DNA from: [Eubacterium] saphenum
Lineage (GTDB): Bacteria; Bacillota; Clostridia; Peptostreptococcales; Anaerovoracaceae
Assembly: GCA_004555725.1 (NCBI GenBank)
Contig: SFHC01000012.1
Span: 89-64,088 of the forward strand
Length of the DNA: 64,000 nucleotides
Direction: 5' to 3'
In this document: in pieces, positions 7,965-50,967 of the stretch
Position numbering within the stretch: the first letter of the stretch is position 1
How the letters are laid out: each line of letters begins with the position of its first letter
Notes under the pieces: generated by a model
The model's database searches: none
What the model was told of the DNA's origin: nothing
Seen by the model: only the letters and a program-made list of their open reading frames with translations
Program-made: the position numbers and the translations under genes

Positions 7965-8013
7965 GAGCAATCTACTCCTCTCTTTTCCAAAGAAATATAA
8001 ACGGAATAACTTC

Positions 8014-16786: not shown

Positions 16787-16832
16787 ATTGTATTGAATAA
16801 CTTGCTTGCAAAACAGGACACGGGAGGATCCA

Positions 16833-17417: not shown

Positions 17418-17426
17418 AAAAACAAG

Positions 17427-17530: not shown

Positions 17531-17576
17531 CTCTCATTCTAATTTCGTATTCTGCTTCTCTCAGCAGGATCCGTTA

Positions 17577-35337: not shown

Positions 35338-36531
35338 CTATTTCAGTTTCTGAATAAACCGCATGCCGCTCGGATTCTTACTCTGGATCAGCGTATTAAA
35401 ATCAACAATAATATCACCGGCCTGATCCGGACGCTGGTACATGGACGATCCGGCAATCCAGCAGTTCCCGTCTCTGACAGCCTTCAGCTTCCTTATCGCC
35501 GGATCCTTCGCCTTCAGATCAGCTAATGTTCTCACACTGCTGTCGATGCTTCCGTTATAGACGATGATATCTGCGTCTTTTGTCAGCTCGTAGAATTTCT
35601 CCATGTTCATCGGCACGGAAATGCTCTTGCTCGTTTTTCCGACGGAATCATATGCATATGTCCCGCCTGCCATCTTGATCATCGCCGGAACGTAATCATC
35701 GGAGCGGCGGACGACAGCTTTCCCGTCTGTGGAAATGTAGAAGAAAGCGACTGTTTTATGCACACCTTTCTTCAAATGTCTGGTTTTCTCTTCCTGCTTA
35801 TTAAAAAACTTCTCCGCCTGACTTTCCCGGTTCATCAAAACGCCGTAAAGCTTGATCCATTCCATTCTGCCAAGCGGGGTGTCTTCATAACTTGAGCGGT
35901 CCACCAAGACCGGAATATGCAGTTTTTCTATCATATTTTTCACTTCCGGCGTGTGATAGATCATCGTGGACTCCAGCGCAAGATCAGACTTCTCTTTTAC
36001 CAGAAGTTCATAATCCGGCTCGCTGTACTTTCCTGCGAACAGCATCTCTTTCTTTTCCATCCGCTTTTTCGGCTCGGAAAATGACCACTCCGATGCCCGG
36101 ATTGAACTCATCCGAACGGCCTGATCGCCCTGAATGTCACAGAGGAGGGACATTGCCGCCGTCGCTGCCAGATAGACATTCTTCAGCGGCTGCCGGATCA
36201 CTGTAATATCATCAGAAAGCCCTTTTGGCTTGCTCTTTCCCTTTGGAACAACCAGAAAGCTGCCCTCTTGCTTAATAGAAATAACCTTATATCCGCCCTG
36301 ATAACGGTATACCTGAAACTGCTTTGCATAATCCAGTTTCAGGGAAGACTGATACTTCAATCCGGAAATATCCGGATGGCTGCCGGAGCTGCTCCTGGCA
36401 GATCTGCTTCCGGAGCCGGACGAGGATCCCGGTCCGCCGCATCCGGTGATCAGCGCCATCACCATGATAATCGACAGCACGAGCGCGGCCGTCTGTTTTG
36501 CCTTTCCCTTTATTTCTGCATATCTGTTCAT
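35338..36531 (-). CDS. ABC transporter substrate-binding lipoprotein, cluster A (BtuF/FhuD/Peripla_BP_2 type)
   Basis: 397 aa. Lipobox ALITGCGG and a Ser/Gly linker. N-lobe (LKLDYAKQFQVYRY...VIRQPLKNVYL) and C-lobe typical of siderophore/heme/cobalamin binding proteins. Last gene of the riboswitch-gated unit. Confidence 0.85.
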   Translation of the reverse strand: MNRYAEIKGKAKQTAALVLSIIMVMALITGCGGPGSSSGSGSRSARSSSGSHPDISGLKYQSSLKLDYAKQFQVYRYQGGYKVISIKQEGSFLVVPKGKSKPKGLSDDITVIRQPLKNVYLAATAAMSLLCDIQGDQAVRMSSIRASEWSFSEPKKRMEKKEMLFAGKYSEPDYELLVKEKSDLALESTMIYHTPEVKNMIEKLHIPVLVDRSSYEDTPLGRMEWIKLYGVLMNRESQAEKFFNKQEEKTRHLKKGVHKTVAFFYISTDGKAVVRRSDDYVPAMIKMAGGTYAYDSVGKTSKSISVPMNMEKFYELTKDADIIVYNGSIDSSVRTLADLKAKDPAIRKLKAVRDGNCWIAGSSMYQRPDQAGDIIVDFNTLIQSKNPSGMRFIQKLK

Positions 36532-36585
36532 CTGATTCTGCTCTTTTCTCTGTTTCCGTATGTTAATATTTGCTTTCTGACAGAA

Positions 36586-39093
36586 TTATCTGCTCTGCGA
36601 TCTGGCATAGCTGCTGAACCAGTTTTCTGCTTCTTTCTCACAGCCCAGCACCGCACCGTAAACCTTCACCCACTCTGCCTGTGCCAGTGTTCCTTTTTCA
36701 CGCGCAGAACGATCGATCAGCACCGGCGTTTCCATTGCTGTAAACAGCTGAATGGCATTATCCAGCTGTGCATACTGTTTACCTGCGTTCTGCTGCGAGA
36801 CAGCTGTTGCGCTCCCCTGTGCAGCGGTCGACTCTGAATCTGGCGCATACCTGTGTACAAAAGACCGGAGGCTTGTTGGGAGAAGGTGATCCGGAAGAAT
36901 TCCGATCACAGAAGCCAGAAAATGCTTGACCGGATGCTGTTCAGCCCTTGCCCTGTCGGCTTTTGTCTGTGCAGCCTCTCCGCGCCCCTGCAACTGCCCT
37001 TCTTCTCTCGGGACTGCTCCGGACGGAAGAATACATAGATCTGTCTTTTCTTCAACGAGATCCCGATAATCCACATGTTTCCAGTCTCCCGGAAACTGGA
37101 CCCGGCCGCTCTTGACACGGCCGCGCAGATCCTGCTCCGCTGACGCCGGCAGACAGCGATACGCTCTGGCGCTGTTGAAGCCGAATGAGCTGAACCGTCC
37201 GGACTGATTCAAAATTCCCGCAAATCGCAGAGCGCTCTGCGAATCAGTATACCCGTGCTTTGGCGTGTGAATAACGATACAGTTCTTATCCAGGCCAGCC
37301 GGGACCGATGCCCCGCTCGGCACAACCAGGTAATTGATGATCCTTCCTTTATAGAGCTGCTGTGTCCGCTCACTCTGCGTCTTCCCTTCCTTTTTTTCCA
37401 GTTCTTCACGGCCGCTTTCGACCTTCGTCTTTTGTTTCTTGTTCCCGTCTGCGCTTCTTCCGGCAGCGTACTTCTCCAAATCCACCTGAATCAGTGTAAT
37501 TCCCCGGCTGTAACGGAAGATCTTAAACAGCTCTGCGTGCTCGACTTTTACAGAAGACTGTTTCTTCAGACCAGCAATTTCCGGCGCTTTCCTGGACAGT
37601 TTCTTTTGTCCGCTCTTCAGCTGCCGTGCAGAAGAAGAATTCCCGCCCTTTCCGCTCAGACCGACATACAAGGTGTACGTAATCCAGTGCGGCTGTGACA
37701 TCGCGACGGTTCTGCCCACAACCTTGTTGTTGGCGTTCAGATGAACCGGAATCACGAACACAGAAGTGCTTCCACCGCTTCCCGACCGCATAAACGTTCT
37801 GCCGTCCGCGCGCAGCTGGTCATAATAAGGACTGTCAAACACGATCGTCGCGTATGCCTTGCCTCCAGTCACCGTGATTTTACTGCATGAAATGCCCTTC
37901 AGCCGTCCTGATCCGCCCGACCAGCTGAACGAACTCGGCGTATAGACGCCGTCCTTTCTGCCCGCGCGGCTGTCCACCCTCGACGTGCTTCCCGACCGGT
38001 CGCTTGTCGACTTTGAGATTCTGTCTTTCTTGTGGTTATTGTGAAATACCTTCTGGACCGTTGTTCCTTCTGCAGTGCTTCTGCGCTTAATTGTATTCTT
38101 CCCTTTCGGAATCACTGTCGCACTGCCCTTGACACGCACGATTCCGCTCGTATAAAATGCAGCCTTATGCTGGTACCATCGGTTTCTCCTCTTGGAATGC
38201 CCGGCGAGCTGAAATTTCTTATTCAGCGTTTTTACCGGAATGGTGTATGAATAATAATTATTGTGGTTTGAGTATCGGATCCAGGTCGATTTCGCCGCTT
38301 TTTCCGCCTGCGCCGCCGTCCCCGGATACAGATAATCGTACCCCTGTCCGGTGAGCGTAATCTTTGCCTTCATTTTCCCGTTCTTCACCGTGAGGATCGC
38401 GTATGTTCCGCCCTGATACGGCTGAATATTGAACATATACTGATCGGTCCACGCCTGAATACGGTAGGTCCCGTTTTTCAGGACGCCGTTCTTAAAGTAT
38501 TTCTTTGATGACGATGACGTTTCCTTCGGCGGCGTCTTTTCTTTCTTATCACTTTTACTTCCTCCGGAATTTTTACTGATGTACGTCTTCGCTCCTTTGT
38601 TCAGACCGACATTCAGCGCATAAGCAATAGCATGGGGCGCACCCATTCTGGTGGTCACCGCGGATACATCAGTAGGTTCATTTATCCGGACGGGCACGAC
38701 AAAGGTTGATGTGCCAAGGGTATGATCGACATCAGAGACATACTCTTTACCGTCAACCGTCATCCTTGTGTAATACGCGCTGTGAAAGACAATCTCTGCA
38801 GACGCACCGCTGTCATCAATTTTTACCCAGTCACATGTGATCTTTACTTTTCCCGTTCCTCCGGAAAAAGTAAACGACGACGGCACATACTTTCCTGCAG
38901 ATATTCCGGACTGCCCGGCACTCTTAGAACCGGATAAAACAGAATCCGATGCCGCAGATGTCTCCGTTTCTGCGTGTGAGGAAAATTCCGGAAACGTCTC
39001 TGCCGCAGCCGTGCTGAAGCTCAGCAGTACGGCCGCAGACAGAGCCGCGGCGCCTATCCTCTTCATGATCGCCTTATGATATTTAATCTGCAT
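36586..39093 (-). CDS. secreted multidomain protein: signal peptide - D2 - D1 - D2 - half substrate-binding protein (N-lobe only)
   Basis: ATG 39093 (RBS GGGAG). Signal peptide ...LLSFSTAAAETF. Two copies of a ~100-aa domain I call D2 (PSSF(T/S)(F/W)SGG(T/S)G...IVF.S.YY...DG...FV(V/I)PV...PH.I.Y.L.VGL) at nt 38602-38895 and 37654-37950. One copy of a domain I call D1 at nt 38149-38475. The C-terminal 330 aa (nt 36589-37578) are paralogous to the N-lobe of the downstream SBP. Confidence 0.7.
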   Translation of the reverse strand: MQIKYHKAIMKRIGAAALSAAVLLSFSTAAAETFPEFSSHAETETSAASDSVLSGSKSAGQSGISAGKYVPSSFTFSGGTGKVKITCDWVKIDDSGASAEIVFHSAYYTRMTVDGKEYVSDVDHTLGTSTFVVPVRINEPTDVSAVTTRMGAPHAIAYALNVGLNKGAKTYISKNSGGSKSDKKEKTPPKETSSSSKKYFKNGVLKNGTYRIQAWTDQYMFNIQPYQGGTYAILTVKNGKMKAKITLTGQGYDYLYPGTAAQAEKAAKSTWIRYSNHNNYYSYTIPVKTLNKKFQLAGHSKRRNRWYQHKAAFYTSGIVRVKGSATVIPKGKNTIKRRSTAEGTTVQKVFHNNHKKDRISKSTSDRSGSTSRVDSRAGRKDGVYTPSSFSWSGGSGRLKGISCSKITVTGGKAYATIVFDSPYYDQLRADGRTFMRSGSGGSTSVFVIPVHLNANNKVVGRTVAMSQPHWITYTLYVGLSGKGGNSSSARQLKSGQKKLSRKAPEIAGLKKQSSVKVEHAELFKIFRYSRGITLIQVDLEKYAAGRSADGNKKQKTKVESGREELEKKEGKTQSERTQQLYKGRIINYLVVPSGASVPAGLDKNCIVIHTPKHGYTDSQSALRFAGILNQSGRFSSFGFNSARAYRCLPASAEQDLRGRVKSGRVQFPGDWKHVDYRDLVEEKTDLCILPSGAVPREEGQLQGRGEAAQTKADRARAEQHPVKHFLASVIGILPDHLLPTSLRSFVHRYAPDSESTAAQGSATAVSQQNAGKQYAQLDNAIQLFTAMETPVLIDRSAREKGTLAQAEWVKVYGAVLGCEKEAENWFSSYARSQSR

Positions 39094-39216
39094 CAATATG
39101 CACTCCCTGATCTCTGTCTCCTTAGAAAAGAAAGCTGCAGCCCCAGCCTCCTGCCGGTTCGATATATATCCCCCGCATATGAACTGGATTGACCGCAGCC
39201 CTTTTTATCCGCTTGG

Positions 39217-40011
39217 TTATTTAATCTTTGCCGCCTTCACCTTGCTCCATCCGGAGTAGCCGGACTTGTATCCGTTGAAATGCTCCGTGCGGACGCGGAA
39301 ATAGTACGTCTTTCCACTCTTCAGATTCTTCACCGTTTTCTCTGTCACATCGTTATAATACACGCTGGCGGTTTTTGCGCCCTTCATGGTTTTTTTGGAC
39401 GCGTACTGAACCTGATAGCCAGTTCCGTTTTTCGTGACCTTTTTCCAGGAAAGAATTGCCGCTTTTTTCTTTGGCGTTAATTTCTTGATCGTAGTTTTTG
39501 CCGGCGCGGCAATCTTGGCGTGCTCAAGATTCTTTTCCTTACCCGTGTAAGTCAGCGTAAGCGTATGCTGGTACCACGTCTGCCGTTTCGCGCTGTGTCC
39601 GAGAACGGAAAGGGTCGTATCGCCCTTGACCAGATCTTTTCCATCTTTCGTCAGCGGAATCGTAAAGTAGTAGGAGTCGCCGCGTCTGACCTTATGCTCG
39701 ATCTGGCCGGCTGCATCTTTCTCCGCTTCTTCTGAAGAAGTCCCCACATACAGTTTATCAAACCCCTGTGCTGCAAGCCGGAAAGTGACTGTTTCCTGTC
39801 CGTTTTTTACCGTCAGAAATGCCATCTGGTTATCCAGGGCATTCACATGGAACATAGGACTGTCTGTTTTTGCAGGAATGGCATACACCCCGTCCGGTAT
39901 CTTTGCTGCTTCCGTATTGCTTCCTGTGTCCGTGTCCGCAAATGCGGCCATGCTCATCGCCATAACTCCGGCGCATGCCGCTGCACCGATTTTTAATGCT
40001 GTTTTTCTCAA
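39217..40011 (-). CDS. secreted protein: signal peptide - D1 domain - fibronectin type III-like domain
   Basis: TTG start at 40011 with RBS AAGGAG. Signal peptide ...MSMAAFADTD. D1 (nt 39547-39894) is homologous to the D1 domain of the 835-aa protein. The C-terminal AAILSWKKVTKNGTGYQVQYA...KTYYFRVRT looks like FN3. Confidence 0.65.
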   Translation of the reverse strand: MRKTALKIGAAACAGVMAMSMAAFADTDTGSNTEAAKIPDGVYAIPAKTDSPMFHVNALDNQMAFLTVKNGQETVTFRLAAQGFDKLYVGTSSEEAEKDAAGQIEHKVRRGDSYYFTIPLTKDGKDLVKGDTTLSVLGHSAKRQTWYQHTLTLTYTGKEKNLEHAKIAAPAKTTIKKLTPKKKAAILSWKKVTKNGTGYQVQYASKKTMKGAKTASVYYNDVTEKTVKNLKSGKTYYFRVRTEHFNGYKSGYSGWSKVKAAKIK

Positions 40012-40032
40012 CTTTCTTCTCCTTATTTCATT

Positions 40033-41421
40033 TTATTTCATCATTGCTGCCGTATGCTGAACATAGATCTTCTGAATCGATTTCAGTGATCCGAGTCCGG
40101 CTACCTGCGCACTTACCTTAAACCCTGCTTTTTTCAGCTGCGATTTCCAGGAATCCGCATCGTTACCGGCGATATCATTATTCGCATGGTCTCCTGCGAC
40201 AACCATCATGCCGCGGATGACCACCTTCTTATATCCCTTCTTCTTCAGTTTCTTAATAATTGACGCAGAAGAGGTTGCCGCCGGCTTGCCTTCAACCGTT
40301 CCGACATAGACATTTTTATATCCCAGCTTATCGTAGTCCTTCTGCATTCTCGTGTACGTTACACGGTTCGCGTGAGAGGTTCCATGTCCAATAAATACGA
40401 ACGCCGTCTTATTTCCCGCCTTCTTCAGTGATGAAGTCTTAACTCCGGCCTGTCTTGCAGACGATTCCGCGAGCGCCTTCGCGACCGTTTTTCTATCTTT
40501 ATCTGATTTCAGCAGCGGACTGGCGATTTTCACAGTCTTCACACTGCCCTTATTTGCCTTTACATTTGCCTTCAGTAAATCATACTCTTCTCCGCTCATC
40601 AGTGTTGTCGGCTGAACGATCAGCGTCTTGACGCCTGCCTTATTGGCTTTTTCCAGTGCTTCTCTCACCGTGTCAATCCGGTATTCATCTCTTGCCAGAA
40701 TATGATTGATGATGACCTGTGAAGTAAATGCTCTTCTTACGGAATATTTCTTCCCATACTTATACTGGAGCGCCTTCTCGATTCCTCCGATCGTCTGGTA
40801 ACGGCTCGCATTGAAACTCGTTCCAAAGCTGACGACCAGAATCTCCGCTTTCTTATCCGGTGCTGCGCATACCTTTTTGGTCCATGCTTTATCCTTGGAA
40901 GCACTTCCGATCGGTGCCGCAGTGGAAAAATAATCCGCTCCGCCTGCTCCCGGATACTCGTACCCGTCCGGGATTTCCGGCACAGCCTTCTTATCGGCGT
41001 CAGAAAGCTTATCATACGCGTATTTTGCAATTTTTGCCACTCTTGCAACCATCTCCGTCTGTGCCTTCTGCTCTTCCGGAGTTGTCTTCGGATGAATGTA
41101 AATCTCACCGATCAATCCGGCAACCAGGAGCGGGCTGTCATTTTTGTCCACAAAAGCCTTTCCCTGTTCCAGCGTCATCTGTGTAATCTTACCGGTAATC
41201 TCCCTGACATTATCTTTAGAAATCGTAACTTTTTCTGCAGTCTGCGCACCGGTTTCTGCCTTCACAGCACTCTCCTCCTGTACAGTTTTTGCCGATGTAC
41301 CTGCCACCTGTGTCCCCGCATTCTGCGCGTCCGCAAATGCTGGCGCAGCAGCGAGCATGCTGGTTGCAACGGCTGCTGACAAAGCTGCAGTCATAAACTT
41401 ATTCAGCTGTTTCTTTTTCAT
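40033..41421 (-). CDS. exported CbiK-type class II chelatase homologue with ~170-aa N-terminal extension
   Basis: Start moved to ATG 41421 (RBS GGAAAGGAAA). Signal peptide MKKKQLNKFMTAALSAAVATSMLAAAPAFADA. The C-terminal 290 aa align with sirohydrochlorin cobaltochelatase CbiK (ILVVSFGTSF..., FIGHGTSH, VVAGDHANNDIAG, GLGSLKSIQKIYVQH). Confidence 0.8.
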   Translation of the reverse strand: MKKKQLNKFMTAALSAAVATSMLAAAPAFADAQNAGTQVAGTSAKTVQEESAVKAETGAQTAEKVTISKDNVREITGKITQMTLEQGKAFVDKNDSPLLVAGLIGEIYIHPKTTPEEQKAQTEMVARVAKIAKYAYDKLSDADKKAVPEIPDGYEYPGAGGADYFSTAAPIGSASKDKAWTKKVCAAPDKKAEILVVSFGTSFNASRYQTIGGIEKALQYKYGKKYSVRRAFTSQVIINHILARDEYRIDTVREALEKANKAGVKTLIVQPTTLMSGEEYDLLKANVKANKGSVKTVKIASPLLKSDKDRKTVAKALAESSARQAGVKTSSLKKAGNKTAFVFIGHGTSHANRVTYTRMQKDYDKLGYKNVYVGTVEGKPAATSSASIIKKLKKKGYKKVVIRGMMVVAGDHANNDIAGNDADSWKSQLKKAGFKVSAQVAGLGSLKSIQKIYVQHTAAMMK

Positions 41422-41463
41422 GATATCTGTTTCCTTTCCCGGTTCTTGAAAAGAGCCGCTCTC

Positions 41464-41750
41464 AATAAAATAACCTTCTGCCAAAATATGGCAAAAGGCA
41501 TACGGATAGAATGGAATCTATCGCATGTGCCAGTATCTCGTGGCGCGGAATACTCCGCTGCGATCATATCCAGGCAGGTCTCCTGACTCGCAGATTATGA
41601 CTTCTGCCGCCTTCCCACGCGCTGAGAGTGCGCGCAGTGGCATGGGTTGGCTTCTGCAATCCGCTTACAGTGACGAAGTTCGTACAGGACTTTCACCTGT
41701 TTCCCTTTTCAATGGCAGCCTGTTCTCTTATAGACTGTCATCACCTGAAC
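41464..41750 (-). promoter_or_regulatory. cobalamin (B12) riboswitch with intrinsic terminator
   Basis: Minus strand reads GGTGATGAC...AAAAGGGAAACAGGTGAAAGTCCTGTAC...CACTGTAAGCGGA...GCCACTG...GGGAAGGC...AGTCAGGAGACCTGCC, which covers the B12-box and flanking conserved blocks. The terminator is CCTTTTGCCA-TATT-TGGCAGAAGG plus TTATTTTATT (41464-41498). Confidence 0.9.
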
Positions 41751-41759
41751 GATATAAAA

Positions 41760-41788
41760 ATTATAGCATGTAGTCGTTGAGCTTTCAA
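41760..41788 (-). promoter_or_regulatory. sigma-70 type promoter in front of the B12 riboswitch
   Basis: Minus strand has TTGAAA (41788-41783), a 17-nt spacer and TATAAT (41765-41760). It sits about 57 nt downstream of the cbiC stop. Confidence 0.55.
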
Positions 41789-41844
41789 TTTTCAATCAAA
41801 AAATGACGCTTGATCCAGCCTCTTCTCAGATTCGCCGCCTCGAT

Positions 41845-42552
41845 TCACCCGCGGTTATCCGGATCCAGCCAACCCGCCGCCGTGTACAGAAGCGCATTCA
41901 CAATAGCAGCGGCTACATTGCTTCCGCCCTTTCTTCCCATCGCTATAATCGCCGGCACCTGACATTCTTCACAGGCAGCGAGCAGCATCTCCTTACTCTC
42001 CACTACATTTACAAAACCGACCGGAACACCAACCACCAGCGCCGGGCGCAGACCTCTGCGGATCTGTTCGGAAAGGGAGATCAGCGCCGTTGGCGCATTC
42101 CCGGAAACAAACACTGCATGCGGATGATTTTTCCCCGCATATTCCATAGATGCCCGGGCACGTGTGATGCCTTCTTCTTTTGCTGCCGATGCAATCCCGG
42201 GATCCGCCATATAGCAGACTGCCCGCACATCCAGTTTCTCCATCGCCCGTTTACTGATTCCAGTCAGCGCCATATTGGTATCCGTCACGATGATTTTAGA
42301 ACGTGCCGGCGAATCTCCGGCTAAGCCGGCATTACGCATGGAAAAATACCGGACGCCTGCCTGAGGCCCGTTTCCCGTAAACCGCAGAGTCTCCGCATAC
42401 TCAAAATCCGCGCTGGTATGAATCGCCCGCAGAATAACCGCACGCATCGCCGGATCTTCCGAAAGATGAATTCCTCTTTCATCCAGCTCCTGCGTAATGA
42501 TGCGCATACTGGTGCGTTCAATGTCTCCAGGTTTTACATGCTGTATTCCCAT
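41845..42552 (-). CDS. cbiC: cobalt-precorrin-8 methylmutase
   Basis: Start moved to ATG 42552 (RBS AAAGGAG). IHTSADFEYAETL and FVSGNAPTAL blocks. Confidence 0.9.
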   Translation of the reverse strand: MGIQHVKPGDIERTSMRIITQELDERGIHLSEDPAMRAVILRAIHTSADFEYAETLRFTGNGPQAGVRYFSMRNAGLAGDSPARSKIIVTDTNMALTGISKRAMEKLDVRAVCYMADPGIASAAKEEGITRARASMEYAGKNHPHAVFVSGNAPTALISLSEQIRRGLRPALVVGVPVGFVNVVESKEMLLAACEECQVPAIIAMGRKGGSNVAAAIVNALLYTAAGWLDPDNRG

Positions 42553-42609
42553 CACAGCCGCTCCTTTCTCTGTTCGTCTCCTGCCCTGTTTATCCACAGA
42601 AGCTCTGCT

Positions 42610-44163
42610 TTATCCCCGCTGCTGCCTGCGGAATACGATATCATAAACCGCGTCCATGTCTAGCGCAGCCCGGACACTGTTCGCGAGTTTATCATATTCC
42701 CTGTCTTCATACTCTTTTCGGCTTATCCGTTTTTTCCCCGTGTAAGAAAGGCCCTTTCTCTCACAGAGCCATGCAGCCAGCTTTTCTGTAACTTCTCCGC
42801 TGTCAAAAAGGCCGTGCAGGTATGTGCCAAACACATTGCCGCTCCAGCAGCCATCATCTTTTCCCTCGCCGTTTTCTGTCTTGTCCGGATAGTTCTGATT
42901 CCCGTCATCCTGCGCAATACGGCTGAACGCCTTTCCACGCACATCCGTAACACCCATATGAATTTCATATGCGTCAACCGAAGCACCGGAAAACGGTTCC
43001 GCTAAAACAGTTCCGCACATCCGTGTCCGCGTCTTTTTCCCGGTAAACACTGTCCTGACCGGAAGGAGCCCCATTCCTTTCATACCGTCAAGACTGCCTT
43101 CTGTATGCTCCGGATTAAGAAGCTCCTCGCCCAGCATCTGATATCCTCCGCAGATCCCGAGAACCGCTCCGCCACGGCCCGCAAACTTCCGGACAGTCAT
43201 TTCCAGGCCTGACTCCCTCAGCCATGCCAAGTCATCCAGGGTGCTTTTTGTCCCCGGAAGAATGACCAGATCCGGAGAACCGAATTCATCCGCGCGTTCG
43301 ACATACCGCACATCCATCATCGAGTCCGACTCCAGCGGGGCCAGATCCGTAAAATTAGAAATCCGCGGAAACCGAATCACTGCAATATCGAGCACCGCGC
43401 GGGAATCATCCTGCTGCCCTGTCCGCCGCAGGCGCGGAGCCAGAGAATCTTCTTCATCAATATCCACATACATGTACGGGATAACGCCCAGAACCGGAAT
43501 GCCCGTCCGCTCTTCAATCATGCGCACGCCCGGCGTCAGGATATCCTTATCTCCCCGGAACTTATTGATCAGCATGCCCTTAATCCTTCTGCGCTCGGAT
43601 TCTTCCAGCAGGGCCGCCGTTCCATAAAGCTGCGCAAACACGCCTCCGCGGTCAATATCTCCCGCCAGCAGAACTGGAGCATCCACCATCTCTGCAAGCC
43701 CCATATTCACAATATCGTGCTGTTTAAGATTAATTTCCGCAGGACTTCCCGCACCCTCGATCACAATGATGTCATTTTCCCGTTCCAGTGAATGGTACGC
43801 TTCCATAATATCCGGAATGAGCTTCTCCTTATACCGGAAATACTCACGGGCATCCATATCCCCGAGCACTTTTCCGTTAACGATCACCTGGCTGCCGACG
43901 TCACTGGACGGCTTCAGAAGAATCGGATTCATTCGCACATCCGGCTCGACTCCTGCAGCTTCAGCCTGCATAACCTGCGCGCGCCCCATTTCCAGTCCGT
44001 CTGCAGTAATCCAGCTGTTCAGCGCCATATTCTGACTCTTAAACGGAACTGTCTTCCAGCCGTCCTGACGGAAGATGCGGCAAAGAGCGCCGCACAAGAG
44101 GCTTTTTCCTGCTCCTGACATTGTTCCCTGCACCATAATGTTCCATGCTTTTCGACCGTTCAT
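42610..44163 (-). CDS. cbiP: cobyric acid synthase
   Basis: 517 aa. P-loop GTMSGAGKS. C-terminal glutamine amidotransferase domain with ICGGYQMLG. Confidence 0.92.
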   Translation of the reverse strand: MNGRKAWNIMVQGTMSGAGKSLLCGALCRIFRQDGWKTVPFKSQNMALNSWITADGLEMGRAQVMQAEAAGVEPDVRMNPILLKPSSDVGSQVIVNGKVLGDMDAREYFRYKEKLIPDIMEAYHSLERENDIIVIEGAGSPAEINLKQHDIVNMGLAEMVDAPVLLAGDIDRGGVFAQLYGTAALLEESERRRIKGMLINKFRGDKDILTPGVRMIEERTGIPVLGVIPYMYVDIDEEDSLAPRLRRTGQQDDSRAVLDIAVIRFPRISNFTDLAPLESDSMMDVRYVERADEFGSPDLVILPGTKSTLDDLAWLRESGLEMTVRKFAGRGGAVLGICGGYQMLGEELLNPEHTEGSLDGMKGMGLLPVRTVFTGKKTRTRMCGTVLAEPFSGASVDAYEIHMGVTDVRGKAFSRIAQDDGNQNYPDKTENGEGKDDGCWSGNVFGTYLHGLFDSGEVTEKLAAWLCERKGLSYTGKKRISRKEYEDREYDKLANSVRAALDMDAVYDIVFRRQQRG

Positions 44164-44298
44164 CCTGTATCTCTCTTCTACTTCCTATTATTCTCACCTG
44201 TCAGTTATTCTTTGTTTCCATCGTTTCTGTCTGTTCTGCCGATTTCTGCTCTATGCTCTTCCGGCATTCCTGTGATCTGCCTGCGTTCGCATTCTGTT

Positions 44299-45507
44299 CT
44301 ATGCTTCTCTGCATTTCTCTGTTCCGGCGATTTCAGGATCCCTGCAGTTTCTTTCCTGCATACATGCCCGGACAGCCTGTACCAGACGGACATTATCACT
44401 GTGTCCTCTGACGCAGACACGAATCCAGTTCCTGTCCAGTCCATGGTAATTCCCGCAGTCCCTTACCAGAATGCCGCGTTCAGCGAGTGGCTCAGCGAGC
44501 TTTCTGTCAGCATGAATGAGCAGATAATTGGCTTCCGCGCGGCTGATAAATGTAATGCCCTTGATCTTCAGAAGTTCCTGACGGAGATATCCCCGCTCTT
44601 TTTGATTCTGCTCACGATACTGTTCAATATATCCAGTCTCCTGAAGAGCAGCAAGTCCGGCAGCCTCTGCTCCTGCGGATATCGGCCATGAAGGGCCGCA
44701 TAATGCTGCGCGCCTGCGAATCTCTCGGTCAAAAAATATACCGTACCCGAGGCGGATTCCGGGCATGGCAAACAGTTTGGTAAATGAACGGAGGAGAATC
44801 AGATTGGCGCAGTTCTGCGCTTCGGAAATAAAGCTGTGCGCGCTTGGTTCATCCGTCAGTCCGATAAACGATTCATCCACAACCAGCAGGATTCCGCGTT
44901 TTTGACATTCTTCCAGCAAGGCTTGCAGCGCTTTCCGATTTGTCGTTCTCCCAGTCGGATTATTTGGCTCACAGAGAATAATCATCTCCGCCTGACGCTC
45001 ATATTCCTGCCGCTGAAAACCCGTATGCTCTGCATCCCGTTCCGCAAGTTCCAGCAATTCATCGATTCTTCCATCCAGAAGAAATTCATCTTCTTCTCTA
45101 AGCAGAAAACGGCTGACAGCAGAACCCGCCGCAGTCAGCGCGCGCTCATATTCACTGAATGTCGGCGCCGTGATCACTGCGCGAGATGGCCTGCAGCTTA
45201 ACAAGACGCGGAAAATAAGGTCCGAAGCCCCCGCTCCCGGAAGAATCTGCCATTGCTGAAGACTCTCCTTTTCCGCCAGAGCCGCTGTCAGTCTGCTCTG
45301 CACCGGATCAGGGTACTCCTGTGCATGCTGAAGCGCGCGTTCTGCGGCCTGTCTTACAGAATCCGGCATCCCCAGCGGATTCACATTAACTGAAAAATCC
45401 AGCGGGACTATTCCATACTGCTCCCGGTACCGGTTTAATTCTCCTCCATGCTCACTGCTCTGAAAAAAATCCAAGTCTTTTCCTTTCTGATAATCATAAT
45501 TCTGCAA
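44299..45507 (-). CDS. cobD: threonine-phosphate decarboxylase (class I/II aminotransferase fold)
   Basis: 402 aa. HGGELNRY...DFSVNVNPLGMP N-terminus. PLP-lysine context LRSFTKLFAMPGIRLGY. Confidence 0.85.
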   Translation of the reverse strand: MQNYDYQKGKDLDFFQSSEHGGELNRYREQYGIVPLDFSVNVNPLGMPDSVRQAAERALQHAQEYPDPVQSRLTAALAEKESLQQWQILPGAGASDLIFRVLLSCRPSRAVITAPTFSEYERALTAAGSAVSRFLLREEDEFLLDGRIDELLELAERDAEHTGFQRQEYERQAEMIILCEPNNPTGRTTNRKALQALLEECQKRGILLVVDESFIGLTDEPSAHSFISEAQNCANLILLRSFTKLFAMPGIRLGYGIFFDREIRRRAALCGPSWPISAGAEAAGLAALQETGYIEQYREQNQKERGYLRQELLKIKGITFISRAEANYLLIHADRKLAEPLAERGILVRDCGNYHGLDRNWIRVCVRGHSDNVRLVQAVRACMQERNCRDPEIAGTEKCREA

Positions 45508-45589
45508 TGTTTCCCGTCCCTCTCTGCAGAACCTCCGTTTGACCGGACCTCAGAGCGACGTTTCACTCACGGCTTTATTACTCTTACAC

Positions 45590-46591
45590 TCAGCGGAGCA
45601 GAATCCAGAAGATCACCGCCCGGAGAGTGAAGAAAATAACTAAACCGGCAGAAGATGCCGCTCCCAGCATCCTGCAGCAGCGCAGGATATCACCTCGCTC
45701 AATCGGACGATCCGCATCGCCGATAGCCGGCTTATCATAGATTTTGCCGAAATACTGCGCCGGACCTGCCAGCTGCACATGAAGCGATCCGGCGCAGGCG
45801 GATTCCGTCTGCGCGGAGTTCGGGCTTGCATGCTTCCTGCTGTCTCTTTTCCATATCCGCAGCGCGTTTTTTCCGTCATTTCCGGTCATCGCTGCGCCGA
45901 GCGCCCAGAGAAGCGCCGCGATTCTGGATGGAATGTAATTCACCACATCATCCATCCGCGCACCGACCCTGCCAAAATAGAGATACCGTTCATTCCTGTA
46001 CCCGATCATGCTGTCCAGGGTATTCACCGCCTTATACGTCAGAGCCAGCGGTGCGCCGCCGATCGCCATATAAAACAGCGGGGCGATCACACCGTCAGAA
46101 AAGTTTTCCGCAACTGTTTCACAATCTGCCTTGATGACTCCGGTTTCATCCAGTACAAACGTGTCTCGTCCCACAATTCTGCCCACATCCTTCTGTGCCT
46201 GTTCCAGCGTTCCCTCCGGCGGCAGGCTGTGGTAGACGTTCACAGCTTCTTTCTGCAGACCCCGCATTGCGAGTGCCTGCCAGCACCAGAGTGTCTGCAG
46301 AGCAAATCCGAGAACCGGATGAATACGCAATGCAGCTGTACAGAGAAAACCTGTAACCAGCAATGTCGTAATGACGGTGATTCCGGCAGTCAATGCGCCT
46401 CCTGCAAGTTCACCTCCTGAAGTTTTTGGGAAAAGCTTCCTGAAAAAACGTTCCAGAGAAGAAATTTCCTTCCCTATGATCACGACCGGATGAGGAAAAT
46501 GAAAAGGATCGGCCAGAAGCAGATCCAGCAGCGCACCCGCTCCTGCAGAAGCTTCTGTAATGATAAAATACATGATCCAGTGGTTCATCAA
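45590..46591 (-). CDS. cbiB: adenosylcobinamide-phosphate synthase
   Basis: 333 aa membrane protein. FPHPVVIIGK and HASPNSAQTESACAG blocks. ATGA overlap with the cbiA stop. Confidence 0.9.
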   Translation of the reverse strand: MMNHWIMYFIITEASAGAGALLDLLLADPFHFPHPVVIIGKEISSLERFFRKLFPKTSGGELAGGALTAGITVITTLLVTGFLCTAALRIHPVLGFALQTLWCWQALAMRGLQKEAVNVYHSLPPEGTLEQAQKDVGRIVGRDTFVLDETGVIKADCETVAENFSDGVIAPLFYMAIGGAPLALTYKAVNTLDSMIGYRNERYLYFGRVGARMDDVVNYIPSRIAALLWALGAAMTGNDGKNALRIWKRDSRKHASPNSAQTESACAGSLHVQLAGPAQYFGKIYDKPAIGDADRPIERGDILRCCRMLGAASSAGLVIFFTLRAVIFWILLR

Positions 46592-48009
46592 AATCCTCCT
46601 CTGTTCCTCTCCATTTGAGAGTGCCTGTATGCTTCTGCCGCGCAGATAAACCTCTTCACCACCTGCGGATGCGCGGCAAGATAGAGGTGCGGAAAACCCG
46701 CATACCAGGACGGTCCGGCGTACCCCTCACTCCAGTTCCTGGATGACAGCGGTTTCTTCATCTGGAACGCGTCTCCGTCTTCATCCGATTTCCAGTAATG
46801 GAATTCGTGAACGCTCATTGATTCTCCCCGCTTAAACAGAAGACTGTCCTCTTTTGCCTGCATTTCCGCGTATCCGAACCGAACCAGTTTTCCGGCAGAT
46901 CTGCCGGTTCCCGGAAACACACCGGCCATCGGCCAGAGCGCCCCGTCCGCATCACGGAGAAATTTCTGCAGATACAAAAACCCGCCGCATTCTGCAATTA
47001 CCGGCATACCGGAACAGATACTTTTCCGTATACTGTCACGCATTGACCGGTTCTCGGAAAGCTGTCGGGCATACAGCTCCGGATATCCGCCCGGAAGTAC
47101 GATGGCATCGGCATCCTCCGGCACATATGGTTCATGGACAGGACTGAAGTAAACGACGTTTCCGCCCTGACGATCCAGTTCTTCCTGTGTCTCCTGATAA
47201 CAAAATGTAAACGCCTCATCACGCGCCAGCGCAATAACCGGGCGAACATGCTCTGCAAGGACCCAGGAACGTCCGATATCCACACCGGAATCCTGATCTT
47301 CCTGCATTGCAGGAACGGGAACCGAAAACAGCGATTCTATCTTCTTCCAGTCAAGATGCTCTTCCATCGCATCCGCAATCACTTTGATATTCTGCTGCAG
47401 ATCTTCAATCTCATCAGCCTGATACAGCCCGAGATGCCTGGATTCCACATGAACATCCGGAAGCTCCGGAAGATAACCGACCACCGGGATACCTGTTTCC
47501 TGTTCCAGAATTTCCTTCATCAGTCCCGCATAAGATTTTTTACACCGGTTCAGAATGATTCCGGCAATCCGGCTGTCCGAACGGAACTGCTGCAGGCCCT
47601 TTACTTCTGCCGCTGCCGACAGACTGCTTCCTGACGGATTCAGAACAAGCAGAACCGGAATGTCCAGCGTATTCGCAAGATGCCAGCAGCTCCCCCGGTC
47701 TGTCTTACCAGAAAGTCCGTCATACAGTCCCATCACGCCTTCAACTACAGCAGACCCATGTTCCGCAAGCTCTCTCTGATAGCAGCTGCGGACATACGAC
47801 TCATCCGACATCACCAGATCCAGATTGTGGCTGCTGACATTCAGAACACTCCGGTGAAACATCGGATCGATGTAATCCGGACCGGTCTTGAACGCACAGG
47901 GAAACAGACCTTTTCTCTTCAGTATTTCCAGCAGTCCGCAGACAAGGAAGGTTTTTCCGCTGCTTGATGCAGGCGCAGAAACCGCAATTTGAACTTTTCT
48001 CTTTTTCAT
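46588..48009 (-). CDS. cbiA: cobyrinate a,c-diamide synthase
   Basis: 473 aa. P-loop SSGKTFLVCGL, TGPDYIDPMFH. C-terminal GATase domain with AECGGFLYL. Confidence 0.9.
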   Translation of the reverse strand: MKKRKVQIAVSAPASSSGKTFLVCGLLEILKRKGLFPCAFKTGPDYIDPMFHRSVLNVSSHNLDLVMSDESYVRSCYQRELAEHGSAVVEGVMGLYDGLSGKTDRGSCWHLANTLDIPVLLVLNPSGSSLSAAAEVKGLQQFRSDSRIAGIILNRCKKSYAGLMKEILEQETGIPVVGYLPELPDVHVESRHLGLYQADEIEDLQQNIKVIADAMEEHLDWKKIESLFSVPVPAMQEDQDSGVDIGRSWVLAEHVRPVIALARDEAFTFCYQETQEELDRQGGNVVYFSPVHEPYVPEDADAIVLPGGYPELYARQLSENRSMRDSIRKSICSGMPVIAECGGFLYLQKFLRDADGALWPMAGVFPGTGRSAGKLVRFGYAEMQAKEDSLLFKRGESMSVHEFHYWKSDEDGDAFQMKKPLSSRNWSEGYAGPSWYAGFPHLYLAAHPQVVKRFICAAEAYRHSQMERNRGGF

Positions 48010-48037
48010 GCACCTTCTCCTTCTCTATCATCCGCCA

Positions 48038-49300
48038 TTATCCACTGATCACATATACCGGATTCTCCGCAAGCATCATGTGACAGCCTCTGACTGATCT
48101 GGAACGGCTCACCGCAACCTGCATGACTTCCGGCTCCCTTCCCAGATCACGCAGAACTTCCAGCCCCTCGCTGACTGTTTCAAGAACGATTCCCGTAAAC
48201 ACGATCCGAACCTCCGGGTTTCGTCTTACCGCTTCACGGATGATCTCCCGGATTGTTCCATCTGACCCGCCGATAAATACGGCATCCGGCTTCGGAAGAT
48301 CATGCAGCGCATCCGGAGCCTCCCCTCTGACCAGGTGCATATTGGTCAGATGAAATTTCCTGCGGTTTTTCAGAATCAACGAACAGGCTTCTTCCTTGCG
48401 TTCAATCGCATAAACGGCTCCTCCCTTTGCCTGACGCGCGAGTTCCACCGATACGCTCCCGGTTCCCGCGCCGACATCCCAGATCGTTTCCTCCGGCGCA
48501 GCCTGCATCTTAGAGACTGCACACAGACGAACCTCTCTCTTGGTCATCGGTACCTGACCGCGGATAAACGCGTTATCCGGAATGCCCATGACCGGAAACA
48601 CATCACGGACGCCTTCAACCAACACGACCGCAAGCAGAGAAAACTCCGTTTCCGCCGCATCACGACAGTATGAAGACGTAATCTTTTCTTCATTCATACC
48701 GAGATTTTCACCCACCCAGACACGCTGCTCTCCAAGACCTGCGTCACAGAGATCACGGCAGAGTTTCTGCGCTCCCGTTCTGCCGCCGGTCAGGAAGAAC
48801 GTATCCCTGCCAAGGCGCAGCTCTCCTGCCGGATCACAGTCCCTGCCGTGTGCGGAAACCAGAGTCCAGTTCTGCCACGGCCTGCGGATTGCAGCGGAAA
48901 GCATCTGAATCGAAGAAATGCCCGGGAACACGGTCAGTGAAAACCCGAGCGTGTCTTCATTAATAGAACTCTGCGGATCTGTACTTCCCGGAACCCTCTT
49001 CTCCAGTTCTTTCAAAAACGACCCCGCACCGCTGTAAAACCCGGTGTCACCGCTGTACAGCAATGCAATATTCTTATCCGCCCAGACATCTCTTTTCTCC
49101 AAAAGCAGATCAGCAATCCGGCCGGGCCAGATTTCCTGCCGGAATTCCGGACTGTGTTCTCCGTCATCCGGAAAAGCCCGCTGCGCCAGTGCAAGCAGCC
49201 GCGGCGCGCCAATCAAAAGATCCGCTTCCATTGCCGCATGCCGCGCATCCGGAATCAGACATTCCATTCCTGCTCCAAGTCCGATCAATGCTACTTTCAT
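48038..49300 (-). CDS. cbiET: fused cobalt-precorrin-7 C5-methyltransferase / cobalt-precorrin-6B C15-methyltransferase (decarboxylating)
   Basis: 420 aa. N-terminal tetrapyrrole methylase (CbiE) half. C-terminal SAM methyltransferase half with WDVGAGTGSVSVE (CbiT). Confidence 0.9.
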   Translation of the reverse strand: MKVALIGLGAGMECLIPDARHAAMEADLLIGAPRLLALAQRAFPDDGEHSPEFRQEIWPGRIADLLLEKRDVWADKNIALLYSGDTGFYSGAGSFLKELEKRVPGSTDPQSSINEDTLGFSLTVFPGISSIQMLSAAIRRPWQNWTLVSAHGRDCDPAGELRLGRDTFFLTGGRTGAQKLCRDLCDAGLGEQRVWVGENLGMNEEKITSSYCRDAAETEFSLLAVVLVEGVRDVFPVMGIPDNAFIRGQVPMTKREVRLCAVSKMQAAPEETIWDVGAGTGSVSVELARQAKGGAVYAIERKEEACSLILKNRRKFHLTNMHLVRGEAPDALHDLPKPDAVFIGGSDGTIREIIREAVRRNPEVRIVFTGIVLETVSEGLEVLRDLGREPEVMQVAVSRSRSVRGCHMMLAENPVYVISG

Positions 49301-49307
49301 CTGCTTT

Positions 49308-50135
49308 TTACTCCTTTATCTTCACCGGGTCCTCCCGAACTTCTGACGTTCCCGCCGCCGCACCGTACTCTGCACCGCCGGACCGGCTTCTGGTCTCATT
49401 TTTCACATACTGCAGAATGTCCTCTGCCCTGCTCGCCGGCAGCAGTTCCTCCGGACGGCGAATCATGACCAGTTCAATTCCACATTCCTCCGCCGCCTCA
49501 ATTTTCTGGAACATGCCTCCCTGCCGGCCGCTCTCTTTTGTAACCAGATAGGAAATCTCCAGGTCACGGATCATACATACATTCATCGCCGCTGAAAACG
49601 GCCCCTGCATGGCAATGATGTTCTTTCTTGGAATTCCTGCTTCTTTACACGCTTCCAGAGCCTGCACAGACGGCAGCACCCTGGGATGCAGTCGTTCCGG
49701 ACCCAGCGCCGAAAAATCCATGAGGTTCTTCGATCCTGTGGTCAGCAGAATATTTCCCGGCAAATTCCGCAGATACGCACAGGCATCCTGTACAGAATCC
49801 ACCCGCTTCAGACTCCGGCTTTCCGGAAGCGGCTCTTCTTCACGCACATACCGGAACACTTTCTTATCTTTCCTGCTGCAGGCCGTCAGAATGCTTCTGC
49901 TGATATGCTCTGCAAACGGATGCGTCGCATCGACACAGAAATCAACATCATCCAGCATCTGTTCAATCTCGTTTTCCGGACGAATCCCGCATAATGCGGT
50001 CAGATTTTTCCTGTGCCCCAGCGTCTCGATCCCATAATCCGTCGCTGCACTGTAAATGACCCGGCATCCTTCATCGGCAAGCTTTACTGCCAGTTCCCGT
50101 CCTTCAGTTGTCCCTCCGAAAATCAATGCTCTCAT
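49308..50135 (-). CDS. cbiJ: cobalt-precorrin-6A reductase
   Basis: 275 aa. The N-terminus MRALIFGGTTEGREL is typical of CbiJ/CobK. Confidence 0.88.
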   Translation of the reverse strand: MRALIFGGTTEGRELAVKLADEGCRVIYSAATDYGIETLGHRKNLTALCGIRPENEIEQMLDDVDFCVDATHPFAEHISRSILTACSRKDKKVFRYVREEEPLPESRSLKRVDSVQDACAYLRNLPGNILLTTGSKNLMDFSALGPERLHPRVLPSVQALEACKEAGIPRKNIIAMQGPFSAAMNVCMIRDLEISYLVTKESGRQGGMFQKIEAAEECGIELVMIRRPEELLPASRAEDILQYVKNETRSRSGGAEYGAAAGTSEVREDPVKIKE

Positions 50136-50167
50136 GCGTTTTTTCTGCTCCTGCCAGGCACAGCTTC

Positions 50168-50905: not shown

Positions 50906-50967
50906 TCTGTCCCTCTTTTCTCTGTTTTCCATCTTTCTATTGCTGCAAACACACGGTTTCCAGTTAT

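Follow-up and report, generated by a model that had tools for sequence, protein, structure and literature searches.

The subject of this study is a group of four genes for exported proteins, here called p1 to p4, and the cobalamin riboswitch that precedes them on the minus strand of a 64,000-nucleotide stretch of the [Eubacterium] saphenum genome (contig SFHC01000012.1), referred to below as the window. The four genes form a candidate system for the uptake of corrinoids, by which we mean cobamides and/or their incomplete precursors. They encode a homologue of the chelatase CbiK, a complete substrate-binding protein (SBP), half of a second one, and two types of domain, D1 and D2, whose predicted structures resemble the NEAT fold. 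The elements of the locus are as follows (aa, amino acids; nt, nucleotides of the window).

41760-41788, minus strand: sigma-70-type promoter TTGAAA-17-(TG)TATAAT, 11/12 positions matched, extended -10.
41556-41763, minus strand: adenosylcobalamin (AdoCbl) riboswitch aptamer of the Cobalamin family RF00174, 104 bits with the Rfam covariance model.
41463-41499, minus strand: expression platform, an intrinsic terminator hairpin (GCCUUUUGCC...GGCAGAAGGU) and then UAUUUUAUU, recognized by its pairing and T-run.
40033-41421, minus strand: p1, exported CbiK-family (class II chelatase) protein of 462 aa (PF06180, E 2e-65), made up of a signal peptide (AFA/D), a linker and helical extension of ~160 aa, and the CbiK core at residues 191-460 (nt 40042-40851).
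39217-40011, minus strand: p2, secreted D1-FN3 protein of 264 aa (D1 profile, E 1e-32; fn3 PF00041, E 9e-7), with the NEAT-like D1 at residues ~33-167 (nt 39511-39915) and FN3 at residues 169-253 (nt 39253-39507).
36586-39096, minus strand: p3, secreted D2-D1-D2 protein with an SBP-like C-terminus, 836 aa from TTG or 835 aa from the next ATG, with D2a at residues 65-170 (nt 38587-38904), D1 at 201-337 (nt 38086-38496), D2b at 380-500 (nt 37597-37959), and an SBP N-lobe plus backbone helix at 505-836 (nt 36589-37584).
35338-36531, minus strand: p4, complete cluster-A (BtuF/FhuD/IsdE-type) substrate-binding lipoprotein of 397 aa (PF01497, E 2e-27).

A first-pass annotation of this DNA, made from the sequence alone, had placed a promoter, a canonical cobalamin riboswitch and an intrinsic terminator directly after cbiC, and our analysis located all three there. 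The cbiC gene (PF02570, E 6e-62) ends at 41845, just upstream of the promoter, which at 41788-41760 is the best such site of the 7.5 kb between 34500 and 42000. The scan for RF00174 that the annotation had proposed covers model positions 1-189 of 189 with E 6e-25, its score lying far above the gathering score of 31.5 bits, and a covariance model that we built from the riboswitches of related loci gave 110 bits for the same aptamer. The terminator hairpin (41499-41473) has 10-11 bp, five of them G-C pairs, and ends in the T-run; hairpin and U-run lie 57 nt 3' of the aptamer. For the leader between 41560 and 41455, the folding energy is -40 kcal/mol (z = -4.7), and the minimum-free-energy structure contains the terminator hairpin. 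With a full aptamer above threshold, an expression platform and a B12-related gene downstream, the leader counts as a member of RF00174. It is also the only cobalamin riboswitch in the window according to both covariance models, neither of which found a second one before the FecCD-cbi array. AdoCbl riboswitches with terminators turn genes off when B12 is plentiful. At low intracellular adenosylcobalamin the terminator would remain unformed and p1-p4 would be transcribed, while at high levels transcription would stop at 41473-41499, a mechanism that we propose because the sequence elements are present and the biology of such riboswitches is established.

The genes p1-p4 are separated by only 21, 120 and 54 nt. 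The claim that each of these closely spaced minus-strand genes carries a signal peptide or lipobox is borne out by the open reading frames (ORFs) and by export signals called by rules on the sequence. In this rule-based reading, the N-termini of p1, p2 and p3 are K/R-rich and show a hydrophobic core and an AxA site (AFA/D, AFA/D and AAA/E), whereas p4 has the lipobox ITGC at residues 28-31. From these signals, p1, p2 and p3 would be exported by Sec and p4 would be lipid-anchored on the outer face of the membrane. The same inspection found no LPXTG motif or second hydrophobic segment in p1-p4. Domain searches also agreed with the identities first given to the products (a CbiK homologue, a 264-aa D1-FN3 protein, an 835-aa D2-D1-D2-half-SBP protein and a BtuF/FhuD-type lipoprotein). 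In sequence searches of Protein Data Bank (PDB) chains, the FN3 domain of p2 resembles titin FN3. A homologue of p3 (P0001) is 99% identical and has 835 aa. A charged, low-complexity and poorly conserved insertion of ~96 aa occupies p3 residues ~690-785 (window 36730-37030), between the sheet of the SBP N-lobe and the backbone helix; the corresponding insertion in the homologue P0011 has ~43 aa.

The C-terminus of p3 covers positions 17-241 of an SBP profile of 393 positions, corresponding to the N-lobe with the inter-lobe helix, and the protein ends there. It gave no PF01497 match at E <0.1 and does not have the two lobes of an SBP; the first-pass label 'half-SBP' was therefore accurate, only those profile positions being covered. 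Among the representatives of the p3 family, the SBP-like part ends at about position 225-260 of the profile in 123/124, and a D2 domain stands immediately before it in 124/124. Because the same truncation recurs in this way, we regard the half-SBP, on sequence grounds, as a conserved module and not as a decayed gene; the possibility that it is a truncated pseudogene or the remnant of a p4 duplication was considered and rejected for the same shared end point. The general domain order is a variable number of D1/D2 units, the last one a D2, followed by the SBP-like region. The number of D1/2 domains per protein ranges from 1 to 11 or more among family representatives, with up to nine D2 matches per protein in the D2 profile search.

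This family is large and unannotated. A word-indexed search returned 119 clusters of homologues, all named 'hypothetical protein', and an exhaustive search with the D2 profile returned 1,394 representatives of 50%-identity clusters at E <=1e-3 (1,075 at E <=1e-10). Named sources of p3 homologues are all Bacillota (Blautia glucerasea, Eubacterium sp., Anaerovoracaceae and Porcipelethomonas), and the family is also present in rumen and environmental metagenomes. None of 139 representatives carries an LPXTG/NPQTN sortase signal. In two members (P0104 at locus L091 and P0114 at locus L092), D1-(D1)-D2 is fused to a complete SBP, and these genes (L091 1506-3992; L092 67-1998) are followed directly by FecCD and ATPase genes with no separate SBP gene. 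The L007 module has a CbiK-D1-D2 lipoprotein (P0106) in place of p3, and L037 has a D1-D1-CbiK fusion. Such fusions physically tie the NEAT-like domains both to the binding protein of the transporter and to the CbiK homologue. In three loci the p3-like gene is split into several ORFs (L005 9962-12858, L063 and L089), which may reflect either frameshifts caused by decay or errors of assembly.

We compared 93 loci, namely the window, ten loci on long contigs (L001-L010), 80 metagenome loci gathered with a narrow D2 alignment (A3), and L091 and L092. A locus was taken as assessable when its operon start was visible, and as not assessable when the module was cut by a contig end or lay <200 nt from it, which was the case for 28/93. 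A same-strand cobalamin riboswitch was found directly upstream of the module in 59 of the 65 assessable loci. For an element that is present few times per genome, such an association cannot be chance. The riboswitches expected by the first-pass annotation at orthologous loci were found in all ten long-contig loci, 15-350 nt before the first module ORF (measured stop-to-stop), in L091, one of the two full-SBP fusion loci, and upstream of the D2 match in 47/80 metagenome loci when searched with the covariance model built from the long-contig riboswitches. The 47 metagenome riboswitches have 29 different bit scores and hence do not come from one clone.

Most of the misses have a simple explanation. 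Among the 33 metagenome loci without a riboswitch, 27 were not assessable (in 24 the first module ORF is cut by the contig end and in three there are <200 nt upstream), and L092 likewise has only 66 nt of upstream sequence. The six assessable negatives are L054, L055, L059, L063, L069 and L086. Two of these modules lie inside cob/cbi operons, L059 with CbiA and then 27 nt before the p3-like gene, and L054 with CobT upstream and CbiD downstream. L055 is probably a disrupted locus, with a 5'-truncated p3-like gene devoid of a signal peptide and foreign, AT-rich genes of unknown function inserted upstream (1169-5085). L063 has a fragmented gene, and L069 and L086 have orphan D2-halfSBP genes. We considered the negative loci as an argument against B12 control and rejected it, since 28 of the 34 loci without a riboswitch lack the operon start and two of the other six sit in cob/cbi operons.

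The usual gene order is riboswitch, CbiK gene (optional), D1-FN3 gene (optional), p3-like gene, SBP, FecCD and ATPase. In L001-L010, the CbiK gene comes first in the module; where it is absent, the p3-like gene does. SBP-FecCD-ATPase genes come after the module in L002 and L004-L010. Behind the transporter there is a CobA/BtuR adenosyltransferase gene in L006 and L009, and there are cbi genes in L010. The module adjoins cbi genes in the window, L001, L003, L006, L009, L010, L054 and L059, and stands away from them in L002, L007 and L008. This synteny and the riboswitch control are kept across Lachnospiraceae-like, Anaerovoracaceae and Oscillospiraceae-like genomes. Such conservation is hard to reconcile with the idea that p1, p2 and p3 are unrelated surface proteins, such as adhesins or wall proteins, with no tie to the BtuF gene beyond a common transcript. 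The FN3 domains and the cell-wall-binding repeats encoded next to one homologue might suggest this, but the domains are also covalently fused to SBP and CbiK, and we consider the explanation highly improbable. It is the only one of the alternatives weighed in this work that leaves the field of B12 or metal uptake.

What kind of domain, then, are D1 and D2? The D1 copies of p2 and p3 are 33% identical (E 1e-16), D2a and D2b of p3 are 41% identical (E 6e-16), and the profiles of the two types proved homologous when aligned (hhalign probability 96.4%, E 1.4e-9). Neither domain is recognized by a Pfam model, no NCBIfam family was found for p2 or p3, and searches of PDB chains with the p2 and p3 sequences gave nothing for either domain, the titin matches of FN3 being the only ones. 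AlphaFold2 models built on family alignments reached a predicted local distance difference test score of 92.3 for D1 and 87.4 for D2 (D2b). Both are predicted to be all-beta sandwiches, D1 having nine strands and a short helix near its N-terminus (model residues 20-22). The NEAT fold is an immunoglobulin-like beta-sandwich of eight strands whose N-terminal region includes a short helix, and the models of D1 and D2 appear to have this fold. Foldseek searches of the PDB pointed to the same fold: with the D1 model, ranks 1-23 are all NEAT domains (IsdX1, IsdX2-NEAT5, Shp, IsdA, IsdB, Hal and IsdH; probability up to 1.00, E down to 1e-4), and with the D2 model, ranks 1-8 are all NEAT domains (Hal, Hbp2-N2, IsdX1, IsdA and IsdH).

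Sequence comparisons agree with the models for D1, at a low level. Sub-threshold matches to Pfam NEAT at E <0.1 were obtained for 19/32 diverse D1 sequences, the best at 3.7e-5, and the D1 profile compared with PDB sequences gave IsdX2-N5 at a marginal E of 0.2. The two D2 domains of p3 had no NEAT match at E up to 0.1 in the Pfam scan of that protein, and the D2 profile found among PDB sequences only marginal matches to sortase B, which we judged irrelevant. The Foldseek results and the sub-threshold D1 matches thus place the domains away from the unrelated carbohydrate-binding or adhesin families that the first-pass annotation had kept in view. It had also likened the operon to an Isd relay; since the top structural matches are all NEAT and Pfam NEAT is matched below threshold, that analogy rests on a shared fold and not on operon logic alone. 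As modeled, D1 and D2 are divergent NEAT-fold domains and not members of Pfam NEAT, a wording that we adopt because the template-modeling scores (TM-scores) are moderate.

In NEAT domains heme is held between the short helix and the beta7-beta8 hairpin, and is passed from domain to domain to the SBP. Neither D1 nor D2 has the heme-ligating YxxxY of the last strand together with SxxxxY of the 3-10 helix. The last strand of D1 opens with W-Y-(D/Q)-(R/H)-x and lacks a second Tyr at +4; Met-Phe is found in the short helix of D1. That of D2 opens with H-x-I-x-Y (HxxxY), with an invariant Met in the preceding hairpin loop and an invariant Cys on an earlier strand. The positions of these motifs relative to those of NEAT are based on predicted secondary structure. 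In the numbering of p3, conservation over 287 D1 instances is 95% for Met221, 95% for Phe222 and 98% for Trp307, and over 349 D2 instances it is 93% for Cys404, 99% for Met466, 85% for His470 and 99% for Tyr474. The conserved Met, Phe, Trp, Cys, His and Tyr residues are candidate ligand residues. There is a precedent for Cys as an axial ligand to the cobalt of a corrin in the uptake protein BtuM (PMC6072759).

The NEAT-like domains may instead act as receptors or scaffolds that bind B12 carriers (haptocorrin, intrinsic factor or bacterial B12 binders) or the cell wall, so that only p4, and perhaps p1, would touch the corrinoid, the module still serving B12 uptake. Some NEAT domains (IsdB-N1 and IsdH-N1/N2) bind hemoglobin and not heme, and hemoglobin complexes are among the Foldseek matches of D1. 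The difference in invariant residues between D1 and D2, which recalls the division of labor in IsdB/IsdH, the variable number of domains and the absence of the canonical YxxxY from D1 could all be understood in the same way. Near-invariant Met, His, Cys, Tyr and Trp are, however, typical of ligand binding or stacking and not of protein-protein interfaces. Moreover, in some species D2 is fused to the only SBP of the transporter, which fits a hand-off of ligand better, and the family extends to rumen and environmental metagenomes, settings with different host carriers. We therefore see a receptor or scaffold role as unlikely, though it is the strongest of the alternatives.

The complete SBP, p4, scores 96.4 bits with PF01497 (threshold 27.5) and matches over its full length the profile of SBPs encoded beside p3-like genes. 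It is a lipoprotein with a long Ser/Gly linker and appears from these matches to be a cluster A (class III) SBP; it had no significant match to any solved SBP sequence, E. coli BtuF included. The ligand that a cluster-A SBP brings to its FecCD/BtuC permease may be a corrinoid, heme or a siderophore. That p4 binds a corrinoid is suggested by the riboswitch and by the gene context. Its presumed partners are encoded elsewhere in the window.

55203-56381, minus strand: FecCD/BtuC-type permease (PF01032, E 5e-77), presumed membrane partner of p4.
54014-55261, minus strand: ABC (ATP-binding cassette) ATPase of FecE/BtuD type (PF00005, E 7e-28, match from residue 46), an ORF whose listed 5' end probably lies too far upstream.

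Both genes were identified by Pfam. They lie 12.6-15 kb upstream of the module and, as the first-pass annotation had said, at the head of the cbi array. In nine related loci (L002, L004-L010 and L091) the FecCD gene comes directly after the SBP gene. The cbi array itself (41845-54140, minus strand) comprises CbiD, methylases, CbiG, CbiJ, CbiET-like, CbiA, CbiB, CobD, CobQ and CbiC. In the window, the membrane parts of the importer and B12 synthesis seem not to be riboswitch-gated, whereas the capture proteins are. Compared with L010, where the order is riboswitch-CbiK-D1-p3-SBP-FecCD-ATPase-CbiD and so on, the arrangement in the window suggests that one ancestral operon has been circularly permuted.

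The exported CbiK homologue p1 matches PF06180 over residues 194-460 with 221 bits. It scores 171 bits with the NCBIfam equivalog of biosynthetic CbiK (NF047852), whose cut-off is 400, and because of this difference we do not regard its sequence as that of a biosynthetic CbiK equivalog. Its Sec signal peptide and 160-aa extension also set it apart from a cytoplasmic biosynthetic enzyme. The best PDB match is 9b86, the P. gingivalis heme-binding protein FetB (E 7.7e-33), followed by S. enterica CbiK (1qgo) and then a D. vulgaris chelatase; p1 is closer to the exported FetB than to S. enterica CbiK. His145, Glu175 and His207 of 1qgo align with the conserved GHG, VE and GDH of p1, which, together with the Pfam match, suggests a class II chelatase that may still carry out metal or tetrapyrrole chemistry. 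The exported CbiK proteins of L004 and L010 have an FN3 domain and open with a degenerate D1-like N-domain. The same degenerate domain (MFTPQEGTT...) opens a protein encoded directly upstream of the p3-like gene of L036 (153-914, plus strand), where it is followed by cell-wall-binding GW/YYF repeats; this protein is a possible wall anchor for the system.

These features of p1 bring in another explanation, in which the module serves cobalt acquisition or the metalation of tetrapyrroles outside the cell: the exported CbiK would bind Co2+ or insert or remove a metal, and what results would be taken up through the NEAT-like proteins and the SBP. In B12 producers, cobalt supply is often under the control of B12 riboswitches. 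The His-Glu-His metal site is intact in p1, which is the sole CbiK homologue of the window, no cytoplasmic CbiK or CbiX being found among the Pfam-annotated genes of the cbi array, and two cobW-family genes lie downstream of the L092 module (4936-6278). FetB, also an exported CbiK homologue, is reported to produce Mn-protoporphyrin in P. gingivalis (PMC13065792). The CbiK gene is nonetheless missing from the riboswitch-controlled modules of L002, L005, L006, L008 and L009, and we therefore treat p1 as an accessory and not as the core of the system. FecCD importers with cluster-A SBPs are known to carry chelates, corrinoids or heme and not free Co2+, the transporter genes of L006 and L009 are followed by one for a BtuR adenosyltransferase, and the module is also found at loci without cbi genes. 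Cobalt acquisition or metalation as the function of the module seems to us quite unlikely.

Taken together, our results make it probable that p1-p4 form a B12-repressed module that captures corrinoids outside the cytoplasm and delivers them to a BtuFCD-type ABC importer. From regulation, synteny, fold and domain fusions, we infer that D1 and D2 bind corrinoids and that p1 may do so. The single NEAT-fold domain of p2 and the three of p3 would hold the corrinoid in the counterpart of the heme pocket of canonical NEAT domains, and move it inward along p2 and p3 to D2b. As the domain that always stands just before the SBP N-lobe, D2b would hand the ligand to p4, which would dock on the FecCD permease and its ATPase, whose genes head the cbi array. 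The half-SBP probably positions p3 on p4 or on the permease, a role that we propose because p3 has no other anchor. The optional accessory p1 may bind a tetrapyrrole or corrinoid, or change its metal.

Several observations weigh against this interpretation. The TM-scores of the D1 and D2 models to NEAT domains are only moderate (0.45-0.62), and D1 of p3 scores below the Pfam NEAT (PF05031) gathering threshold (20.8 vs 32.8 bits; range 19-21, E 5e-4 to 2e-3). The alignment of the D1 and D2 profiles with the NEAT domain of IsdA by hhalign was not significant; the IsdA sequence used agreed with the published numbering in its length of 350 and in residues S82, Y166 and Y170. For that reason we claim no residue-by-residue mapping onto the heme pocket and do not equate its residues with the Met, His, Cys and Tyr conserved in D1 and D2. 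Corrinoid binding by the domains is a prediction, and the geometry of the relay is assumed; rule-based inspection found no recognizable wall anchor in p1, p2 or p3. In the window, the permease and ATPase are outside riboswitch control, and a host with a full cbi array makes B12 itself, for which scavenging is not obligatory. Finally, the closest solved relatives of D1/D2 (NEAT) and of p1 (FetB) are all heme proteins, and the best NCBIfam match of p4 is IsdE, although far below threshold (E 5e-5, 22.6 vs 298 bits).

The last two points raise the question of whether the system takes up heme or another iron-porphyrin under B12 regulation, for example through the precursors that heme and B12 share. 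The top structural neighbors of both domains bind heme, as does the best PDB match of p1. On the other hand, the cobalamin riboswitch is present at nearly all assessable loci and two more modules lie inside cob/cbi operons, BtuR and cbi genes are neighbors, and neither heme oxygenase nor sortase was found among the Pfam-annotated genes of the window or of L002-L010. YxxxY is missing from D1 and reads HxxxY in D2, and both domains fall short of the Pfam NEAT threshold. Heme uptake is in our judgment very unlikely, and corrinoid capture remains the reading that we prefer.

Some other features of these loci deserve mention. L010 has a second, divergent cobalamin riboswitch (6278-6457, minus strand, 80 bits) before a gene of the PF00860 xanthine/uracil-permease family (4894-6207, minus strand), whose product may import a lower-ligand base, for example a purine or benzimidazole, under B12 control. 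Immediately 3' of the transporter operon of L002, from an Anaerovoracaceae genome, there are 16 tRNA genes (16117-17575, plus strand), and Clostridiales-1 small RNAs (RF01699) lie near the modules of L005 (7306-7678) and L009 (22031-22198). In the window, the genes downstream of p4 have no connection with B12; among them are those for an S58 peptidase and for D-Ala-D-Ala enzymes. Upstream of the FecCD-cbi array lie a DUF1287 gene (56445-57311) and the gene of a GntR/FCD regulator (57971-58702), and a lysine riboswitch (RF00168, 8127-8303, minus strand, 83.9 bits) overlaps the 5' end of the ORF at 6309-8255.

Among known systems, the closest in operation are the Isd/NEAT relays, such as S. aureus IsdH/B/A/C to IsdE-IsdF, B. 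anthracis IsdX1/IsdX2, and S. pyogenes Shp to HtsA. They likewise have secreted or surface proteins with one to many NEAT-fold domains beside a cluster-A SBP lipoprotein and a FecCD importer, and like D1 and D2 they present a short helix and a last beta-hairpin with conserved residues of the Met, Tyr or His type. In IsdB-N2 and Shp, which both appear among the Foldseek matches of D1, Met is used as a ligand-type residue. The present module differs from these relays in being controlled by a cobalamin riboswitch rather than by Fur, although Fur boxes were not searched for. Its domains lie below the Pfam NEAT threshold and do not have YxxxY, the last of them is fused to half of an SBP or rarely to a whole one, and its predicted ligand is a corrinoid and not heme. 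Sortase-anchored NEAT proteins with a dedicated sortase, an IsdG/I heme oxygenase and Fur/iron regulation, which characterize Isd systems, are not what we see here: LPXTG/NPQTN signals are absent from the representatives, and neither sortase B nor heme oxygenase occurs among the Pfam-annotated genes of the window and the related loci.

In purpose, the module is nearer to the surface capture of cobamides in Bacteroides, where BtuG, BtuH and BtuJ (DUF4465) work with BtuB as a riboswitch-controlled, multiprotein extracellular relay (PMC6143338, PMC8941943, PMC13616437). In both cases riboswitch-controlled accessory binding proteins feed a transporter, but BtuG/H/J are Gram-negative outer-membrane lipoproteins that supply a TonB-dependent transporter, while the present proteins are Gram-positive, secreted and would supply an SBP. 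Homology to the BtuG beta-propeller, to the C-terminal domain of BtuH or to DUF4465 was found neither by Pfam nor among the top 50 Foldseek PDB matches listed for D1 and D2. With BtuFCD systems, the module shares the core importer (p4, FecCD and ATPase), the B12 riboswitch and, in some loci, a btuR-like gene downstream; it adds a second, truncated copy of the SBP fused to NEAT-like domains. P. gingivalis FetB (IhtB) and the periplasmic CbiK(P) of D. vulgaris resemble p1 in joining a class II chelatase fold to a signal peptide and in standing beside ABC/TonB tetrapyrrole uptake, and in Desulfovibrio a B12 element precedes cbiK-cbiL-btuCDF (PMC545781). Both come from Gram-negative bacteria and have been connected with heme or porphyrin. 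An N-terminal extension of ~160 aa distinguishes p1, and its relatives carry FN3, D1 or D1-D2 domains, none of which has been reported in FetB or CbiK(P).

Comparable NEAT domains already described are those of the 'Clostridial Group' of Honsa et al. 2014 (PMC4143258), found in anaerobic Firmicutes, without YXXXY and with a conserved Met, for which the authors noted a possible non-heme role. Like D1 and D2, these domains occur in multi-NEAT proteins; unlike them, they are recognized by Pfam NEAT, are mostly found in LPXTG-bearing proteins, and were not connected with B12. The first-pass annotation knew of no described equivalent in Firmicutes. Our searches of the open-access and bioRxiv literature agree, having found no description of NEAT linked to cobalamin, corrinoids or riboswitches, or of cobamide capture at the Gram-positive surface, although such absence is not proof; a 2026 review likewise calls Gram-positive extracellular cobamide capture 'entirely uncharacterized' (PMC13616437). 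The module would work like an Isd/NEAT relay and have the purpose of a BtuG/H/J relay, and is a member of neither. We infer a NEAT-type relay re-targeted to corrinoids, with the half-SBP as a novel module.

A broader proposal, for which we see about even chances, is that D1 and D2 are a large, unannotated branch of the NEAT superfamily that switched from iron-porphyrin to cobalt-corrin, using Met, His, Cys and Tyr in the old heme pocket. With the half-SBP and the exported CbiK, this branch would form the first extracellular cobamide-scavenging relay known in Gram-positives, a 'corrinophore' system widespread in gut and rumen Clostridia. Such a system may strip B12 from carrier proteins of the host or of competitors, and may select particular corrinoids or remodel them.

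Competition for B12-type cofactors shapes gut communities, and its capture machinery has been detailed only for Bacteroidota (BtuG, BtuH and BtuJ). The module offers a concrete and testable candidate for Bacillota, the other dominant phylum, with a clear regulatory signature and a presence in many gut and rumen Clostridia. It could help to annotate ~1000 'hypothetical' proteins, to predict which gut Firmicutes compete for corrinoids, and to obtain new corrinoid-binding scaffolds. If our interpretation is true, at least two new domain families would become available for annotation, the conserved half-SBP fused to binding domains would stand as an unusual building block, and exported CbiK-family proteins would gain a Gram-positive context. 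NEAT, known from textbooks as a fold for heme piracy by pathogens, would also be extended to commensal anaerobes and to a second tetrapyrrole cofactor.

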